The notes below the pieces were generated by a model. That model was given only the letters and a program-made list of their open reading frames with translations. It searched no databases and was not told the origin of the DNA. Below, piece after piece: positions 2,130 to 10,840 of a DNA stretch of 64,000 nucleotides. This stretch comes from Treponema sp. GTDB taxonomy: Bacteria > Spirochaetota > Spirochaetia > Treponematales > Treponemataceae. Position 1 is the stretch's first letter, and every line of letters starts with the position of its first letter. The stretch lies in NCBI GenBank assembly GCA_024402655.1, contig JAKSTH010000002.1:795-64794 (forward strand), in the 5' to 3' direction. The translations under genes were made by a program, and so were the position numbers.

Positions 2130-4139
2130 CTATTTCTTTTCTACTCCTCTTTTTTTAATTGAAGAAATAGTAAAGTTTATGTTCTTTTCAGTTTCCTTTT
2201 CACTTTCAATTTCCACATCCCAAATAAGTGTAGAAACAGCAGTCATACCAATATTTTCTTTACTGTAATTTGTTGTAGGACGTTTAAAAGTTATAGGATT
2301 ATAATAATATGAACAAATTTCATTTGGCTCATATGCAAAGCTTAATCCATTTTCCAGGTCTGCAATTCTTGCAAAATCAACATTATTAAGCTTATTCTTT
2401 TTATTAAGTTTTTGAGTAGAAACCTCTGGATCCAAAACCATTCGTTCAGATTTATTCAATACTTCTACAATAAAATAGCTAAGTTTTTCTTTATCAAAAT
2501 TTACATTATTAAAGTTTGATTCAACTGCAAATTTTGCACGTAAAGTCTTATTACTTTTATTTTTAAGAATATACTGAACATTCATTCCGTCAGAATTTAT
2601 AATATATTTTTTTGTAAGTTGAACTTCCTGTTTTGTAGGCATAAACATGGCAGAAGCAGAAAGCAGGATTTCTCTTTTCTTTGTGTTAAATTTTACTTCT
2701 GTATAATGTATTTTAGAAAATACACCTTCTTTTGGAACTTCTCCACTTATATATGAATCGAACTGTTCATTAGAAAACAGGAAATCTACAAAAATACCTC
2801 GGCCATAATCATCTTCCTGGCCATCCCATTCTATAATGCGGTTTAAGTTGTCTGCATAGTTTCCACTATTTTTTATTGGCTCTAAATCTAAAATTGAACC
2901 GCCAATTAAACTGATGTATGCAAAGTAATTTTGCATTCTACAAACATATTCAAAAAGTCCGTCGCCATCATAATCAAAAGCAGTAATTGTTTCTTTAAAT
3001 GCACTGCCTTCTCTTAAAATTTTTTCAGCATCCATAAGATTTTTAAATGCTTTCTGACGATATTTTGAATTATTAAAAATGCTTTTATTTGTACACAACA
3101 AACCAAGTCCATTCTGAGCTTCCCAAAGTTTTTCTCTGGCAGCTTTTTTTCGCATCTTGTCCACTTTTGACTGATTAACAAGCATGCTTACATACATAAT
3201 TCTGTTATATAAAGAATGACTTGGATTATATATCTGCATAAAATCATAAGCATTTAAAGCTTTTAATTCTTTTCCTTTTGAACCAAAAATAGAAAGTTCT
3301 GTTCCTTCTGCAATTCTATGGTTCATGCCACAGGAAATATATCCAGGTATTTTTGTTGTATTAATTTTTCTGTAATTGTCTGGTGTAGAAAAAATGATTC
3401 GTGTATCTGTATTTTCTTTTAAATATGAAGCAAGTTTTTCAAACCATTTTACACTGTTCAGTTCTTTCATGGTTGAATGAGAAAGATTAATTGTTACAAC
3501 TCTACTTGGCTGCATCTGAAGATATTTATCTTTCTTCTCAACTTTTTCAACAGCTTTTACAATTTTAGTAATAAAATCTTTTGCAGATTCATCTTTTTCA
3601 GGTGCCAGATTTTCATAAGAAGGGAAAATTTCAACAGATTTTCCAAGATCAGTCATAATAATTGGAAGGAATTTCTGTTTATCACTTCCAATAATTTGTG
3701 AATCCAAAAAAGTATATTCAACACCACAAGTCTGTAAATTATTTACTAAAGAAGCGTCCCAGCAATCTGCAAAAAGAGTAATTCCTCTAGGTCTTTTACC
3801 AAGAGTTTGTCTTAATTCAGCAGAAAGCATATCAATTTGACCATTACGGTCTACAGGGAAAATTAATGGCAATATAGGTCCGTAGTATCCGCCACCTAAA
3901 ACTTCCAGCTGTTTTCTTTCAATCATCTCTTTTAAAATTGTTATTAATTCTTTTTTACGGTTTTTAAAATAAGAAAGCTGCAAACCAGAAAAAGAAAGAG
4001 AAAATTCAAAAGAAGGATTATTATAGAGAAATTTTACTATTGGTTTATAAACTGTCTGATAATCTTCTTCAAGAATTTTTGAAGATTCAAGACTATATGA
4101 TACAGACTTTATGCTAAAGCAAACGTATATTGAATTCAT
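2130..4139 (-). CDS. GH57/DUF1926 4-alpha-glucanotransferase-like protein; catalytic motifs degenerate
   Basis: QLEVLGGGYYGPIL, LGKRPRGI, DYDGDGLFE and a C-terminal beta-sandwich; no HxHQP, WLxE or DGEKFG motifs. Confidence 0.75.
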   Translation of the reverse strand: MNSIYVCFSIKSVSYSLESSKILEEDYQTVYKPIVKFLYNNPSFEFSLSFSGLQLSYFKNRKKELITILKEMIERKQLEVLGGGYYGPILPLIFPVDRNGQIDMLSAELRQTLGKRPRGITLFADCWDASLVNNLQTCGVEYTFLDSQIIGSDKQKFLPIIMTDLGKSVEIFPSYENLAPEKDESAKDFITKIVKAVEKVEKKDKYLQMQPSRVVTINLSHSTMKELNSVKWFEKLASYLKENTDTRIIFSTPDNYRKINTTKIPGYISCGMNHRIAEGTELSIFGSKGKELKALNAYDFMQIYNPSHSLYNRIMYVSMLVNQSKVDKMRKKAAREKLWEAQNGLGLLCTNKSIFNNSKYRQKAFKNLMDAEKILREGSAFKETITAFDYDGDGLFEYVCRMQNYFAYISLIGGSILDLEPIKNSGNYADNLNRIIEWDGQEDDYGRGIFVDFLFSNEQFDSYISGEVPKEGVFSKIHYTEVKFNTKKREILLSASAMFMPTKQEVQLTKKYIINSDGMNVQYILKNKSNKTLRAKFAVESNFNNVNFDKEKLSYFIVEVLNKSERMVLDPEVSTQKLNKKNKLNNVDFARIADLENGLSFAYEPNEICSYYYNPITFKRPTTNYSKENIGMTAVSTLIWDVEIESEKETEKNINFTISSIKKRGVEKK

Positions 4140-4230: not shown

Positions 4231-4839
4231 CTAATTCTTAATAACGCGTTTAAACAGTTTATACCATTGTTTCCAGAATTTAAAGTCATTTTTTTCTTCC
4301 CAAACAACAGCCTGTTCTTTTTGAATATCTGAACAACTTGTAGGTGAATTATCACAGTTAGAACAAGAAATAATCGAAGGTGTATCTTTTGGAATAAGTT
4401 TGATAATTCCTAAAGGACATATATCAACACATTTACCACATCCTACACAAGTACTTGTAATAACAGCAGAATTATTAACAATTTTAATTGCATTCTGAGG
4501 ACAAATCTTTACACAATCCCCTAAACCTATACAAGAAAATTTACAGTCAGTACCAGTACCATTATCAGAATTAATCATAAAACAGGTATGTGCTTTATTA
4601 AAAACAGTACGGCTAATTTTAAAATTTTTCTTGCATGAACACATTACAAAAGCTTTTTTATCAGAAACCTTTATTGGCTGACTTTCACTTTTAATGTAGT
4701 TTAATTCTTCTTCAGCAACAACTTTATTGGTTGTAAGTTCAAATTCATTTTCAGTTGCAAATGGTTTATTTACAAGAATGAGAATTAAAGCCGAAAGAAT
4801 AAGAATAATAAGAACTATTAAAACATATAATAAAACCAC
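4231..4839 (-). CDS. rnfB: RnfB-like membrane-anchored ferredoxin
   Basis: N-terminal TM helix; CKFSCIGLGDCVKICP and CVGCGKCVDICP; last gene in C-D-G-E-A-B order. Confidence 0.75.
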   Translation of the reverse strand: MVLLYVLIVLIILILSALILILVNKPFATENEFELTTNKVVAEEELNYIKSESQPIKVSDKKAFVMCSCKKNFKISRTVFNKAHTCFMINSDNGTGTDCKFSCIGLGDCVKICPQNAIKIVNNSAVITSTCVGCGKCVDICPLGIIKLIPKDTPSIISCSNCDNSPTSCSDIQKEQAVVWEEKNDFKFWKQWYKLFKRVIKN

Positions 4840-5397
4840 TTAGAATACCTCCGGATTAATCCACATAAAGTCCCATGAAGAAATTACAAGAATGATGATT
4901 GCAATAAAAATAAAAAGTCTGCTCATATAAACTTCTGGCTGTTCAATATCTTTTAAATTTCTTTTTCTGAATGAGTAAACTAATGGAACAAAAAGTAACA
5001 TGGCAATAATAGTACTTAAAGAAATCACTATAGTATTAACTAATGCAGTACTTTCAGAAACTGAAAGCAGAACAGTCAAATATGAAAGAACAAACTCTGT
5101 ACTTGATTTTTTTGTGAGATATCTTGTTATCATTTCAAAAAGCATGGAAATAAATACATAAACAAGAAGACTTGTAAATGGATAAAGTTCAGCAAGTTTT
5201 AATGGTACAAGAAGTTTATCTGCTATTAACCATGAAAGAATACTACTTACAAGAATAGTTAAAATCACTTTTCCAAAGTAAATAATATCTTTGTTTTTCA
5301 TAGTATTTACATCAGCAGTTTTATTAAGTCCAATTCCATAAATTAAAATTGAAGAAGCAAAGCAAACATAATAAAAAAATGCATTTAAATAAATCAT
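4840..5397 (-). CDS. RnfA-like integral membrane protein (divergent)
   Basis: 185 aa with 5-6 TM helices, LLVPLKL segment; rnfA position in the operon. Confidence 0.6.
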   Translation of the reverse strand: MIYLNAFFYYVCFASSILIYGIGLNKTADVNTMKNKDIIYFGKVILTILVSSILSWLIADKLLVPLKLAELYPFTSLLVYVFISMLFEMITRYLTKKSSTEFVLSYLTVLLSVSESTALVNTIVISLSTIIAMLLFVPLVYSFRKRNLKDIEQPEVYMSRLFIFIAIIILVISSWDFMWINPEVF

Positions 5398-6011
5398 TCA
5401 CAAGCCTCCACATTTTTAATAATGTTAGATTTATTTCTAACAACAATATGAATAAACAAAACAACAGCAGAGAATAATAATGAGCCTGGTATTGAAGCAA
5501 GTAAAGAGAAAATACTTACTTTTTCTGGATCAAGTAAAACTTTTTCTACAATATTGAACCCTGAACCAAAGTATGTGATTGTTCCGTAACCAAAAACATC
5601 GCGAATCAGAAAATATAAAAGTGCATATACAGAGAAAGTCAGAATATGTGAAAAAGTAAATTTTAATCTTTTACCAAGTGGGTCTTCTACATCTGAAAAT
5701 AAATATCCCAAGAAGAAGAAAGATATTGGCATAAGATAAATTACAAAGCCAAGTGTAAGAACTACTTCAGGATTAATTAAAACCATAATCTGTCTAAAAA
5801 GAATTGTTGTAAAAACAGTACTTCCTAAAAGAATAACCGAAGATTCTTCTTCCAGTTTAAGTGTTTTAGTAAGAGAGTTAATAAGAATTCCTATGAGCAT
5901 TACAAGATTTAACTGTAATACAAGAGCTAATCCATAAACAAAACGTCCTGGAGAAGGCACCAGCATTGCCAGTGCTGTTGAAACAAATACATATATTGAT
6001 CTTCTTTTCAT
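5394..6011 (-). CDS. RnfE-like integral membrane protein (divergent)
   Basis: Multi-TM; LIRDVFGYGTI and ASIPGSLL resemble RnfE IREILGxGT and PPGAF. Confidence 0.65.
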   Translation of the reverse strand: MKRRSIYVFVSTALAMLVPSPGRFVYGLALVLQLNLVMLIGILINSLTKTLKLEEESSVILLGSTVFTTILFRQIMVLINPEVVLTLGFVIYLMPISFFFLGYLFSDVEDPLGKRLKFTFSHILTFSVYALLYFLIRDVFGYGTITYFGSGFNIVEKVLLDPEKVSIFSLLASIPGSLLFSAVVLFIHIVVRNKSNIIKNVEACE

Positions 6012-6019
6012 AATCTTTC

Positions 6020-6475
6020 CTATTTACCAAGAATTGAAGGAACTTTTCTCTGCCAGTATTCTATGCGCTGGTCAAAGCTTTTGTCTCTAAACTGTGTAGC
6101 AATTCTTCCATGAAGTGAAGAAAATCCTGCAAATTCAACATTGTTATTTTCATCACAAGTGAAAACACAAGCTAAAGGTCCGTATAAAGTAGTTACTCTT
6201 AAAATTACTGCTTCACTAACCTCTTTTGTCTGTTTATTAATAATATTATAAGCAGCTGCATTAGTAGTCATAGGACTGGAAATTTCGATTGTATCGCCAA
6301 CCAGCCAAACATCCCCATTTTCATTCAATACTTTTTCAACACTTGCTCTAAGTCCATTAACCCAGGAATTTCTAGAAAGTTTTACTGAATAAATAAGAAT
6401 TAAAAATGCTGCTAAAAGCAAGGCTGCTGCAATAGCATAATTTCTAAAATATTGTTTATAAGAAAAGTTTTTCAT
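6020..6475 (-). CDS. RnfG-position membrane-anchored protein lacking the FMN motif
   Basis: One N-terminal TM; TTLYGPLACV resembles RnfG GYxGxI; lies between rnfD-like and rnfE-like genes; no [ST]GAT. Confidence 0.5.
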   Translation of the reverse strand: MKNFSYKQYFRNYAIAAALLLAAFLILIYSVKLSRNSWVNGLRASVEKVLNENGDVWLVGDTIEISSPMTTNAAAYNIINKQTKEVSEAVILRVTTLYGPLACVFTCDENNNVEFAGFSSLHGRIATQFRDKSFDQRIEYWQRKVPSILGK

Positions 6476-6484
6476 TCATCAACC

Positions 6485-7558
6485 TCATTTAGCCTGAACT
6501 AATTTTGAAACAAGTTTATTAACTTTAATTTCATCCTGTTTTTCTTCTATAACGCGGATAATAAGATTAATTACGTTACAAATAAGAATTGTATAACACA
6601 TACCTACAGATGAAGTTCCACAACCCATAATAAAGAATGCTATAATACCACAGCAAATACCGTATATTATTTTACCAGCATTTGTTACAGGAATTGTTCC
6701 ATACCACTGCAAAAGGAAAACTGCAAAGAAAAGAGTTCCACTTGTACATAAAGCAAGAATTAAATCTCCCTGAGCTAAAGGTCCTCCAGTCATAACTGGT
6801 AAAAGGAAACGAACTAAAAGACCAAAAACAATAAGGAAAATTGAAGGAATTACAGAAGATGAACTGTCATCAGCATAAAGGAAAATTGAACTGATAATTG
6901 TTATAAAAGTAAATCTGAAGGCAGGAATTACAGACTGAGAATCCCACAAAAGTGAAAGAACACCTTCTGGTAAAGTTACCTTAAACCAATAAAGAATAGT
7001 ACTGTTTAAAATGTGACTCAAAGTAATATCAAAATCAAATACAGTAAAATTACCAGATTTAATAAGAAGAACAGATGGATTTTTAATTGAAAGAATATCT
7101 TTTGTTACTTCAAAACCTGGGAAATATGATGTACCAATAAAACTTGCAAGAACAACAGCAACACAAATTACATTAATCCAAGACTGTGTTTTAGTTTCAA
7201 AAATTACCTTTTCAATTGTCAAAACAAAGAAAGATAAAAGGAACACAGTAAATGGAGGGAATGTCTGTGGCATAAGCATACCAATAAAAATTCCCTGAGA
7301 AATAATTGGAATATTTGTAAAAAGCTGTGTTTTTTTACTTGCATAATTAATAATACAAGCACAAAGACTGCCGGCAAGAGCTGCACCTACAACACAAAGA
7401 GCACTATAACTTTTTGTAAAAATGAGCATAGCAATCTGAATTGTCAGCATAATCAAAACACGAATAGAAACTGCTGAATATGAAGGTTTATTAAAGAAAT
7501 AAGGTTTTAATAAAACCGGAGTCTTTTTAATTTTATAATCGAAATCAATATGTTTCAT
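6485..7558 (-). CDS. rnfD: RnfD-like membrane subunit (divergent)
   Basis: GIFIGMLMP, SGTLFFAVF, TIPVTNAGKIIYGICCG, YTILICN. Confidence 0.75.
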   Translation of the reverse strand: MKHIDFDYKIKKTPVLLKPYFFNKPSYSAVSIRVLIMLTIQIAMLIFTKSYSALCVVGAALAGSLCACIINYASKKTQLFTNIPIISQGIFIGMLMPQTFPPFTVFLLSFFVLTIEKVIFETKTQSWINVICVAVVLASFIGTSYFPGFEVTKDILSIKNPSVLLIKSGNFTVFDFDITLSHILNSTILYWFKVTLPEGVLSLLWDSQSVIPAFRFTFITIISSIFLYADDSSSSVIPSIFLIVFGLLVRFLLPVMTGGPLAQGDLILALCTSGTLFFAVFLLQWYGTIPVTNAGKIIYGICCGIIAFFIMGCGTSSVGMCYTILICNVINLIIRVIEEKQDEIKVNKLVSKLVQAK

Positions 7559-7562
7559 AAAA

Positions 7563-8861
7563 TTACTTCCTTTCCAATCGTTCTTTTAATACTGCAATAG
7601 TCTGACACAGTGGTAATCTGGAAGGACACACTGTATTACAAAGTCCACATTCAGTACAAACAAGAGCCGAATTAACATAATTTTCAGAAATAATAGTTTT
7701 ATTTGCCATGTAATTGTACAAAATATCTGGAGAAATCTTTTCAGAACAAGCATAACGACAGTTTCCACAACCTATACATGAATAAACATGATAGTCTGTT
7801 GCCTTAAATTCAGAAACAAATTCCACAGATTTTACATATTTTGTAATTGGAATATCCATATTGTTTACAGTGTAACCACAAACAAGACCGTTTATAACTA
7901 CAAGTGCAGGCTGTTCTTTAAAACCACCAAGCTGTGCAACAATATCTTTAATTCTAAAACCAATTTTTACATCCATAAAACAAGAAGCTTTTAAACAGTT
8001 TCCTGAAAAATGAATTAATTTACTAATAGAAGGAACTCCATTTACAATAGATTTGAATACTTCAAACATTGTTCCTGAATCAACAAAAAGATCATCTTCT
8101 GAAATGCTGATATTATTTGCTTTTTTAAAAGTTTTATTAAAAGCAAATGTAATTTCCCGTTTAAATCCTGCAGGATACTTTCTAGTATTCATTTCAAGAA
8201 TATGACCATTTGGAATGCGTGAAAAATATTCCAGCTGTGCTTTATTGAATTTTTTATCGATTACGAAAACAACTTCATTAGCATCCATTGCTTTTGCAAC
8301 AATTTCAATTCCCTGTAAAATTTCATCAAAAAAGAATTTTGTATAAAGAGAATCAGAAATACGCATAAAATCTTCATCAAAAAATCTGATAATAAGAGAT
8401 TTCTTTTCTCTTTTACTCTGACGAAGAATCTGTTCACCTAAAGAAGAAGGTTCATATGAAAGGAATGTATTAATTACACCGTATTCTGTAAGTTTTGTGA
8501 TAATTGATGATTCAGAAAATTTTTCCCAATCATTAATAACATGAGGTTTTCCTGTATATGAAAAACTTCCGCCAAGTTTAATTCTAACAGCATTTTCAAG
8601 ATTACCATTAGGACATGTCTGGGAAATAATATCAATTACTTCACCAGGAATTGGAGAATGAATAACAGCTTTATAACCGTCTCCTGAAGAAGGACGTGCA
8701 ATTACATCACCTTCATTAACTTTTTCTCCTGGTTCTACAAGACATCTACAGGAACAGTTTTTTTCATGAGATAAAGGCACAATAGCAATTTTTGGAAGAT
8801 AAGCGCTGCCATAAAATGCATAGTCCTTTATTTTTGTTGATGTATCTTGTAAAGTTATCAT
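7563..8861 (-). CDS. rnfC: RnfC-like subunit (barrel-sandwich, SLBB, 2x[4Fe-4S])
   Basis: VEPGEKVNEGDVIA, IHSPIPGEV, KYPAG, CIGCGNCRYAC, CTECGLCNTVCPSRLPL. Confidence 0.8.
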   Translation of the reverse strand: MITLQDTSTKIKDYAFYGSAYLPKIAIVPLSHEKNCSCRCLVEPGEKVNEGDVIARPSSGDGYKAVIHSPIPGEVIDIISQTCPNGNLENAVRIKLGGSFSYTGKPHVINDWEKFSESSIITKLTEYGVINTFLSYEPSSLGEQILRQSKREKKSLIIRFFDEDFMRISDSLYTKFFFDEILQGIEIVAKAMDANEVVFVIDKKFNKAQLEYFSRIPNGHILEMNTRKYPAGFKREITFAFNKTFKKANNISISEDDLFVDSGTMFEVFKSIVNGVPSISKLIHFSGNCLKASCFMDVKIGFRIKDIVAQLGGFKEQPALVVINGLVCGYTVNNMDIPITKYVKSVEFVSEFKATDYHVYSCIGCGNCRYACSEKISPDILYNYMANKTIISENYVNSALVCTECGLCNTVCPSRLPLCQTIAVLKERLERK

Positions 8862-10234
8862 TTTTTACCACCCTTTCTTATAATAGCCGAAAAATCAATA
8901 AAAAGTAACATACAAACGGAAATAATCATCACAATTATTGTAAAAATATTTACACTATAACTGCTGCTGGCAGTATAACCGAAACTTGCATCTGTTCCCT
9001 GACTTTTTAAAACCTGTTCAATGGAATAAAAGTCCAGAGAATCAATGGAATCCATTACCTGATTCTTAAAGTCCTGATCATAAGAATAAGTAATTTCAAT
9101 TTTTTTAATTTTTCCATCTTCTTTTACATATTCAGGAAAAACAATTTTAGAAGATCCATTGTCTTTATTTATTGATTTATATGATAAAGATTTAATATCC
9201 CAAGTCCATTTTGAAAAATCTTCAAGATTAGAAAGATTTTTTGAAGAAAGAGTTGTTTCTCCAGGTAATAATACTTTTGCAAACTGACCATTAAAAGAAT
9301 CTGAACTGTTTAATATAAAATAGGCAAACACACCAGCAACTGCAATTGTAGCCGCAAGAACAACAGGTTTCATTTTTCCGCCGTAAATTGAAACTTGTCT
9401 TGCATTTCTAATATTTATGAAAGTATAAGTCTGTTTTTTTAGAATTTCATCTTCTTTAATTTTTTTCCAGAAAAGATAACCTGCATCGCAGCCAATAACC
9501 ATCAGCGCAAAAACTCCGGAAAGCCATGAATTAGCAAATGCAAGAACCACAGAAAGTATTACAAATACATAAAAATCAAAAGAATGAAGTAATTTAGAAA
9601 CTGCACCATTTCTTCCCCATAGATTAATCAAAAGAAAGAAAGCAATTAAAATGAAAATTGCAGATATGCTGCAGCTGTAAAAAGGATTTGTTACTGCAAA
9701 AAAGACAGGAAATAATTCCAGTAATATAAAAAATATTTTACGCTTTACAAACAACAGTAAAATTAATGCCACTAAAACAGTAAGCAAAGGAAGCACAAAA
9801 GGATAAGAGAAGGAACTGTCTATTCCAGCTGCAATCCCCTGTTTATTTAAAGCTTTAATTAACTGATTAACATTTTCTTTATAATCATTATGAACATAAT
9901 AAAGTTTGTATTGTTTAGCTGAATCGAAAAAATAATTTTCTCTTAAAGAAAGATAGTCTGATTTTTGTTTATTAATATTTAATGTGAACAAAGTTTTTTC
10001 AAGAGAATTTGCTGTAAGCATAATAGGGATTCTCTGCTTTGCAAGGCTCACATATTCTTCTATCTGGAACTGAGTAAAACCGTCCTGCATAACTTCATCA
10101 TCTACAGAAACAGGCACATAAACTACAGTATAAGAATCCCATAATTTTCCACTTGGAACTGTTCGGAAAGTGTATAATGCAAAAACTGTGAATAAAGAGA
10201 ATATAAAAATAAAAACTTTTTTAATCAGATTCAT
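8858..10234 (-). CDS. Hypothetical multi-TM protein with extracytoplasmic domains, coupled to rnfC (4-nt overlap)
   Basis: 458 aa with about 8 hydrophobic segments; stop overlaps the rnfC ATG. Confidence 0.7.
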   Translation of the reverse strand: MNLIKKVFIFIFSLFTVFALYTFRTVPSGKLWDSYTVVYVPVSVDDEVMQDGFTQFQIEEYVSLAKQRIPIMLTANSLEKTLFTLNINKQKSDYLSLRENYFFDSAKQYKLYYVHNDYKENVNQLIKALNKQGIAAGIDSSFSYPFVLPLLTVLVALILLLFVKRKIFFILLELFPVFFAVTNPFYSCSISAIFILIAFFLLINLWGRNGAVSKLLHSFDFYVFVILSVVLAFANSWLSGVFALMVIGCDAGYLFWKKIKEDEILKKQTYTFINIRNARQVSIYGGKMKPVVLAATIAVAGVFAYFILNSSDSFNGQFAKVLLPGETTLSSKNLSNLEDFSKWTWDIKSLSYKSINKDNGSSKIVFPEYVKEDGKIKKIEITYSYDQDFKNQVMDSIDSLDFYSIEQVLKSQGTDASFGYTASSSYSVNIFTIIVMIISVCMLLFIDFSAIIRKGGKK

Positions 10235-10248
10235 GCACTTTCCTTATT

Positions 10249-10734
10249 TTATTTTAATAAAGAAAAAGCAAGGCCAACAATAAATCCTAATAAACAACCA
10301 AAGATAACCTGCATTGGTGTATGACCATTTACTTCTTTAATTGGTGTATATTCTTTTAATGTACCGTTTTCTTTTAATTCATTACCAATTTCGTTAATTT
10401 TTTTAGCCTGAAGTCCACTTGCTCTTCTTACGCCAAATGCATCACGAATTACAACTAAGAGGAAAACAAAACTGATAAAGAAAACATCTGAATTCATTCC
10501 ATTTCTTAAAGCAACAGTTGTACATAAAGAAGTTACTAAAGCAGAGTGACTGGAAGGCATACCACCAGTTCTCCAGATTAAAACTTCAACAAGTTCACCT
10601 GCTGAATGAATTTTTGCTTTTAATAAATTGATTAAAGTTTTAATAAACTGTGCAAGAAACCAGCTTGTAACTCCTGCAAGAAATGTTGAGCTTGTGAGAA
10701 ATAATTTGAACTGCTCGCTAATATTGTTAATCAT
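10249..10734 (-). CDS. Divergent PAP2 family (DUF212) membrane phosphatase-like protein
   Basis: TGGMPSSHSA, RDAFGVRR, GHTPMQV. Confidence 0.9.
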   Translation of the reverse strand: MINNISEQFKLFLTSSTFLAGVTSWFLAQFIKTLINLLKAKIHSAGELVEVLIWRTGGMPSSHSALVTSLCTTVALRNGMNSDVFFISFVFLLVVIRDAFGVRRASGLQAKKINEIGNELKENGTLKEYTPIKEVNGHTPMQVIFGCLLGFIVGLAFSLLK

Positions 10735-10840
10735 AAATACAATTCCGAAATTTACTTTATATACAATTTTACCATTAGAATGTAAATTTTACTAGTACTT
10801 AATATTGCTTATTTTTCTTATTTTATTAAGATATAAAAAG

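Follow-up and report, generated by a model that had tools for sequence, protein, structure and literature searches.

The window analysed here, i.e., the whole stretch of 64,000 nucleotides (nt) from contig JAKSTH010000002.1 of a rumen Treponema (assembly GCA_024402655.1), contains a cluster of eight genes (4231–10734, minus strand; coordinates refer to the window unless a locus or contig is named) in the order DUF212–M458–C'–D'–G'–E'–A'–B', the last six of which resemble the subunits of the Rnf complex. From the sequence, and with high confidence, this stripped cluster does not appear to be a ferredoxin:nicotinamide adenine dinucleotide (NAD+) pump of known mechanism, since the relay motifs and the Na+ site have been lost and B' is optional, and we infer that the ferredoxin:NAD+ activity has been lost. 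The cluster is proposed to be a selectively maintained Rnf paralogue that may now work as a redox-responsive ion or solute conduit, or as an envelope scaffold, gated by iron–sulphur (FeS) clusters, a reading to which we assign about even chances.

In canonical Rnf, electrons pass from RnfB to the [2Fe–2S] cluster of RnfA/E, the flavin mononucleotide (FMN) of RnfG, the FMN and then the riboflavin of RnfD, the 4Fe–4S clusters of RnfC, the FMN of RnfC and finally NAD+ (PMC12174285). At only one later step of this path do recognisable binding motifs remain in the sequences of the stripped cluster. This was established by aligning the proteins of the window with the canonical operon of their own genome and with 26 orthologues (27 stripped loci in total), and by a table of regular-expression motifs comparing these 27 loci with five canonical spirochaete loci. 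In C' (RnfC-like, 432 amino acids (aa), 7563–8861, minus strand), GVINTF replaces the GMGGASFP of the genome's own canonical RnfC, and RFFDED replaces its NAAECEP. The same replacements, as G[VI]xNTF and FDxDP, occupy the FMN/NADH-motif positions in all 27 stripped loci, the window included, and the old motifs have given way to new ones that are conserved (NTF, FDxDP and YPxG). The two [4Fe–4S] motifs of C' are kept, with C362, C365, C368, C372, C402, C405, C408 and C412 invariant. The RnfD-like D' (357 aa, 6485–7558, minus strand) has no DAISSST flavinylation site, no D..[ST][GSA][AS]T motif and no GETS, both in the alignment and in the 27-locus table. The protein at the RnfG position, G' (151 aa, 6020–6475, minus strand), consists of an N-terminal transmembrane (TM) helix and a small alpha/beta domain, and shows neither an FMN_bind match nor a [ST][GSA][AS]T motif; only one of its residues is nearly invariant.

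Four Cys residues, one in each inner half-helix, hold the intramembrane [2Fe–2S] cluster of canonical RnfA/E (PMC12174285), whereas A' (185 aa, 4840–5397, minus strand) and E' (205 aa, 5394–6011, minus strand) have no Cys conserved among orthologues. In alignments with structures of the PDB, the ligand positions are occupied by K or deleted in A', and are A and S in E'. Moreover, residues T110–A119 of Acetobacterium woodii RnfA, which include the Na+ ligands T110/T111 and Cys113, form an insertion relative to the A' profile, that is, the TM4a/b loop segment is deleted from A'. Mutation of R67 or E115 in RnfE abolishes or cripples function (PMC11889175), and the PDB alignment places the equivalents of these two residues on non-conserved positions of E'. 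An xxC[PS] motif at the position of the first Cys (ALCP, LLCP, GLCP or LICS) persists in the E' proteins of five loci (L051, L052, L053, L057 and L065), where the other three ligands are gone; this retained Cys is a vestige confirming descent from a cluster-bearing RnfE. The polyferredoxin B' (RnfB-like, 202 aa, 4231–4839, minus strand) keeps a Fer4 dicluster, with seven Cys invariant and four nearly so, and is devoid of the ~50-aa GANCGGCGxAGC domain that carries the N-terminal FeS site of canonical RnfB.

The motif table divides the stripped from the canonical class at most sites, and its expressions fail on part of the canonical sequences (GxGGxxFP and GETS in L061–L063, and GxCP in RnfA of L005 and L064). 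The pattern of loss is the same in 27 orthologous loci and, therefore, it is not a product of chance. The initial annotation, made from the letters of the window, had listed the GVINTF and RFFDED substitutions, the missing flavinylation Thr motif and GETS in RnfD, a short RnfG-position protein without [ST]GAT, the absence of the cluster cysteines of RnfA/E and of the N-terminal cluster domain of RnfB, and the cytoplasmic ferredoxin-type clusters of B' and C' as the only ones remaining. Alignment with the canonical operon, the motif table and the PDB comparisons bear out each of these points, and the restriction of the remaining cofactor sites to the cytoplasmic 4Fe–4S motifs extends to all orthologues, which also supports its view that canonical ferredoxin:NAD+ electron transfer is unlikely.

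Judged by family profiles and, for G', by a structure model, the six proteins are true but very distant homologues of RnfC, RnfD, RnfG, RnfE, RnfA and RnfB, although no Rnf-like subunit of the stripped cluster reaches its NCBIfam cut-off. C' scores 168 bits with TIGR01945 (cut-off 246) and shares 17% identity with the canonical RnfC of the same genome; D' scores 106 bits with PF03116 and 38 bits with TIGR01946 (cut-off 207); and B' shows Fer4 dicluster matches only, scoring 70 bits against a cut-off of 252 with NF005503 and 21 against 69 with TIGR01944. No Pfam or NCBIfam match was obtained for G', E' or A'. Pairwise comparison with the canonical subunits by BLASTP gave next to nothing (A', E 0.015; E', E 0.014; G', E 2.8) and, thus, family profiles built from 20 orthologous loci were needed to establish the homology of A' and E'. 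The A' profile matches the canonical RnfA of its own genome at 1e-10 and the E' profile its own RnfE at 2e-9. Against the PDB, the best match of A' is RnfA 8ahx_A (2.3e-10), with further matches to 9eri_A, 7zc6_A and the NqrE chain 7xk3_E, while E' aligns over nearly its full length with the RnfE chains 8ahx_E, 7zc6_E and 9eri_E (2e-3 to 1.5e-2). For G', Foldseek alone gave no significant match, and the AlphaFold2 (AF2) model (predicted local distance difference test score, pLDDT, 90.8) has RnfG chains as all of its top five VIA matches, with Z of 5.6–6.7, 142–146 of 151 residues aligned and a root-mean-square deviation of about 6 Å. This modest fold match is consistent with the gene position and points to an RnfG homologue without the FMN site. 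Hence, homologues of all six Rnf subunits lie in one operon, C', D' and B' by Pfam/NCBIfam, A' and E' by profiles, and G' by fold only.

The genes are tightly packed. M458/C' and E'/A' overlap by 4 nt each, A' and B' abut, and the remaining gaps measure 4–14 nt, with the open reading frames (ORFs) lying on the minus strand exactly at the coordinates given in the initial annotation. Upstream of DUF212, the short divergent intergenic region 10735–10804 contains TTTACA-17 nt-TATATA, read by eye and absent from the output of a promoter scan, which is a plausible candidate promoter for the whole cluster as far as its sequence goes. The promoter and terminator scan of the locus returned signals at or below shuffle expectation and was uninformative in this AT-rich DNA.

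A search for a second, canonical rnf or nqr operon, as had been suggested with the initial annotation, found a full rnfCDGEAB set in the same assembly on contig C180 (locus L005), with all cofactor motifs except the GxCP of the first Cys of RnfA, which was missed by the regular expression. In this operon, rnfC, rnfD, rnfA and rnfB score above the NCBIfam cut-offs, RnfE passes by NF009070 and RnfG falls just under its cut-off (79 vs. 102). Hence, the window cluster is not the sole Rnf of the organism but a paralogue. The C180 operon is followed by a 434-aa ORF (6521–7825 of the contig, plus strand) that belongs to no NCBIfam family, and is preceded, on the opposite strand, by a helix-turn-helix repressor-like gene (430–1047).

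The stripped cluster is a general feature of the family. Of 121 family genomes, about 112 match a D' query strongly and over a long stretch (E 1e-16 to 1e-139), among them every one of the 82 with a completeness of at least 90%, and most D'-positive genomes add a weak partial match, the mark of a canonical RnfD or NqrB. With the E' profile, each of 50 family genomes gave a match at E <= 1e-35, the best match outside the family being 1e-22. An in-frame TAA occurs once in some of the C'/D' genome-search matches (G221, G232, G311, G328, G342 and G367); the G221 ORF read from locus L039 is intact, and these calls may be match overhangs. Twenty family loci have the order DUF212–M458–C'–D'–G'–E'–A'–[B']–GH57 in common. 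Between A' and GH57, B' is absent in six of them (L038, L049, L050, L053, L054 and L055), including a 1.14-Mb genome and a locus of the T. putidum/denticola group, which implies that the electron-input subunit is dispensable for the job of the complex. Five family genomes, 94–99% complete and including the 1.14-Mb one, carry the stripped set only, as PF03116 matches that locus alone and PF02508 matches nothing or E' only. Two further families of the class contain stripped clusters that are more distant, with DUF212 again in first place and M458 mostly present. Among named sequences, the nearest homologues of the window C' belong to Treponema bryantii, and the L053 D' protein has a relative that carries the name Treponema putidum.

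A quick tree was computed by maximum likelihood from 44 RnfC-type proteins and rooted at its midpoint, and no direction of change is claimed from it. The 27 stripped C' sequences are confined to one side of a single branch (Shimodaira–Hasegawa-like approximate likelihood ratio test, SH-aLRT, 99), so that a single old origin of the stripped cluster looks likely, as far as these sequences tell. The canonical RnfC of Treponema groups with other spirochaete canonical sequences. The branches of the stripped proteins are much longer, with end branches of 0.5–1.2 compared to 0.01–0.5 for canonical RnfC. Ratios of nonsynonymous to synonymous substitutions (dN/dS) lie between 0.05 and 0.37 for every computable gene pair of two species pairs (the second D' pair gave no dS), and are rough values because dS is saturated in both species pairs. 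None of the 27 loci read has a broken reading frame, and the genes are translationally coupled. Intact frames, dN/dS of at most 0.37 and the newly conserved motifs together show that the cluster is not decaying and is selectively maintained. Regarding expression, one RNA-library run holds short contigs with 90–100% identity to parts of B', A'/E', D' and M458, one of the matching read contigs spanning the M458/C' junction; the coverage is patchy, its gaps carry no meaning and contigs cannot prove transcription. In two further runs of unrecorded type, short contigs likewise match parts of the cluster at 90–100% identity.

The first gene, DUF212 (divergent PAP2, 10249–10734, minus strand), encodes a membrane protein of 161 aa that matches PF02681 with E 1.3e-41 and a score of 142 bits (cut-off 26.5). 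Of all genes in the cluster, DUF212 is conserved best, with invariant PSSH, RD..GVRR and GH positions that include H63, R97, R103 and H138, i.e., His and Arg residues of PAP2-like type, and its product is a putative phosphatase-like protein. DUF212 leads 25 of the 27 stripped loci. It has no match at the canonical Rnf loci L061–L064 and none upstream of the canonical clusters examined, and a literature search on its function found nothing relevant. M458 (8858–10234, minus strand) encodes a multi-pass membrane protein of 458 aa with no Pfam or NCBIfam match, and occurs in 19 of the 20 family loci, the exception being L055. Its AF2 model (pLDDT 85.7) contains two predicted periplasmic alpha/beta domains. 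The top fold matches are nearly all RND-type proteins and are weak (Foldseek E 8e-3 or worse, TM-score <=0.31), the VIA Z to such proteins being at most 8.6, under the level trusted for helical proteins; in the ESM Atlas, M458 matches Spirochaetota hypothetical-protein clusters only. Both M458 and G' are poorly conserved. Downstream of the cluster, 91 nt past B', lies a gene for a GH57-family protein of 669 aa (2130–4139, minus strand; PF03065, E 2.4e-20), which follows the stripped cluster in 19 of the 20 family loci. In two other spirochaete families, a GH57 gene is likewise found downstream of canonical rnfCDGEAB (L061:9993–11729 and L063:4606–6564). Thus, the linkage between Rnf and GH57 may predate the split and looks ancestral, whether it is functional or mere synteny.

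The window cluster has a counterpart in the literature. The syphilis spirochaete T. pallidum carries a "noncanonical Rnf" operon of seven genes, tp0147–tp0153 (Rnf_Tp; Deka et al. 2015, mBio), in which TP0152 is RnfC, TP0151 is RnfD and TP0149 is RnfE-like, TP0148–TP0150 are TM proteins without a flavinylation motif, and which is co-transcribed according to the authors (data not shown there) (PMC4436053). The initial annotation had mentioned a similar atypical cluster in T. pallidum, and the published operon, together with the gene order of L055, agrees with it. In the L055 genome, a single contig of 1,139,633 bp, DUF212–C'–D'–G'–E'–A'–GH57 lies at about 170 kb and all the proteins join the family profiles of the window. 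By gene content and order and by the absent flavinylation motif, the window cluster appears to match the tp0147–tp0153 type, and we infer from the gene order, not from named sequences, that the L055 genome is that of T. pallidum. The L055 C' (7902–9446 of the locus, minus strand) measures 514 aa by its longest ORF, with an N-terminal extension and an insertion of ~45 aa just after GVVAT, the equivalent of NTF, and DUF212 stands directly upstream of C', with no M458 between them.

How might such a complex work? The Rnf paralogue C'D'G'E'A', with or without B', would have lost both the transmembrane electron relay and the cluster-coupled Na+ site, and a cofactor-less membrane core would remain, with D' derived from RnfD, whose family is related to Amt and urea transporters (PMC12174285), and A'/E' from a rocker-switch pair. 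On the cytoplasmic side, C' would cap this core with two 4Fe–4S clusters and a conserved, remodelled pocket, and B' would be an optional polyferredoxin. The FeS clusters would gate an ion or solute conduit or an envelope scaffold, in a complex co-expressed with the phosphatase-like DUF212 protein and, in most lineages, with M458. The combination of invariant C' clusters and a remodelled pocket on a transporter-derived core suggests such an FeS-responsive conduit or scaffold, and a role as transporter or sensor, which the initial annotation had raised together with a partnership with M458 and DUF212, is speculative. In a wider form, the proposal is that a respiratory ion pump changed its job early in the Treponema lineage and became an FeS-capped transporter, a sensor or a periplasm-directed electron conduit, a statement that, in our judgement, could equally well prove right or wrong. 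Several points weigh against the gated conduit or scaffold. Non-covalent flavins are compatible with the sequence data, and the riboflavin of RnfD is non-covalent even in canonical Rnf. Some electron transfer may persist, as the conservation of the FeS clusters in C' and B' suggests, and publications on T. pallidum regard the complex as a functioning pump (PMC7512555 and PMC11717252). No conserved network of charged intramembrane residues was identified, the only nearly invariant acidic residue being E101 of A', and the putative roles of DUF212, M458 and GH57 are proposed from synteny.

The main rival is a shortened electron path to the periplasm that does not pump, in which electrons would run from the 4Fe–4S clusters of C' (and of B' where it occurs) over a non-covalent flavin in D' to a periplasmic acceptor, e.g., a separately flavinylated lipoprotein like TP0171 of T. 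pallidum, NAD+ and the A/E cluster being uninvolved. The FeS motifs are the sole cofactor sites kept, and are invariant, and in canonical Rnf these same clusters wire RnfC to the riboflavin of RnfD (PMC12174285). Moreover, the Rnf-like subunits of T. pallidum, which have no flavinylation motif, coexist with a periplasmic flavin transferase and a flavinylated lipoprotein (PMC4436053). NQR offers a precedent for an electron exit moved onto a D/B-type subunit. However, no flavin-binding motif is left in D' or G', no donor site was identified on C', B' is dispensable and the cluster holds no acceptor gene, which makes this path rather unlikely in our estimate. Weaker still, and improbable, is the model of the T. 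pallidum literature, which over a decade and as late as 2025 has drawn tp0147–tp0153 as a flavodoxin:NAD+ Na+ pump that feeds ATP synthase and the flagellar motor (PMC4436053, PMC7512555 and PMC11717252); the complex would then still be a ferredoxin or flavodoxin:NAD+ oxidoreductase that pumps Na+ or H+ by means of cryptic or non-covalent cofactor sites. Against the replacement of the RnfC NADH/FMN motifs in all orthologues, the loss of all four [2Fe–2S] Cys ligands, the deletion of the RnfA Na+-site loop and the absence of R67/E115 equivalents, this model can set the complete homologous subunit set in Rnf order, its retention in the 1.14-Mb L055 genome, where no other Rnf or Nqr was found, and the reported co-transcription and proposed role of the operon (PMC4436053 and PMC7512555). 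The six loci devoid of the input subunit B' include the T. pallidum-like one, and the coexistence of canonical Rnf or Nqr in most relatives argues for a different job of the stripped cluster.

Decay of a duplicated rnf operon into a functionless remnant would fit the fast evolution visible in the end branches, the motifs lost throughout and the poor conservation of G' and M458. Nevertheless, it is nearly excluded, given the intact and coupled frames, the low dN/dS, the invariance of the Cys residues and of the newly conserved motifs, and the presence of the cluster in every one of the 82 high-quality family genomes and in the reduced genome of 1.14 Mb.

If the wider proposal of a pump with a changed job holds, the new job would be important enough to account for family-wide universality and for survival of genome reduction. 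The syphilis spirochaete appears to have only the stripped version of Rnf, and the role of the operon as a pump in T. pallidum therefore needs re-examination. If the wider proposal is true, the sole "Rnf" of T. pallidum could not build the chemiosmotic gradient assigned to it, and the flavin-centred energy model would lose its pump. The comparative evidence points to the tp0147–tp0153 type being a distinct paralogue family, standing beside a true Rnf or Nqr in most treponemes, which makes the energy model directly testable in cultivable relatives. The window cluster itself adds a further orthologue of a locus that the literature has named before. No paper describing a stripped paralogue beside canonical Rnf was found in the literature search, and a 2025 review of RNF and NQR does not mention spirochaetes (PMC12174285).

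Compared to the T. pallidum operon, the window shares the DUF212–C'–D'–G'–E'–A'–GH57 order and adds M458 and B', both absent in the T. pallidum-like L055 locus, and its genome also has a canonical Rnf. The literature on Rnf_Tp describes a working flavin-based pump, in which the loss of the NADH/FMN site, of the [2Fe–2S] ligands and of the Na+ site, as well as the family-wide paralogy, are unreported. With canonical Rnf (7ZC6, 8AHX and 9ERI; PMC12174285), the stripped cluster has homologous subunits and an equal gene order in common, with A' best matching RnfA, E' best matching RnfE, a G' model that resembles RnfG and both 4Fe–4S motifs kept in C'. It differs in that the motifs for FMN/NADH in RnfC, for covalent FMN in RnfD and RnfG, for the [2Fe–2S] cluster and for the first cluster domain of RnfB are missing, the TM4a/b loop of RnfA is deleted, all scores stay below the cut-offs, and DUF212 and M458 are extra. 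A precedent for such losses is NqrA of Na+-NQR, an RnfC homologue that has lost its redox cofactors and still serves in a functional complex (PMC12174285). In NqrA, the FeS clusters have gone too, while the membrane relay of NQR is complete and NqrF has been added. In contrast, the stripped cluster has lost the membrane relay, keeps the FeS clusters of C' and has no NqrF-like gene. It would be a naturally occurring example of a redox pump put to another use, of an interest comparable to the loss of cofactors in NqrA.

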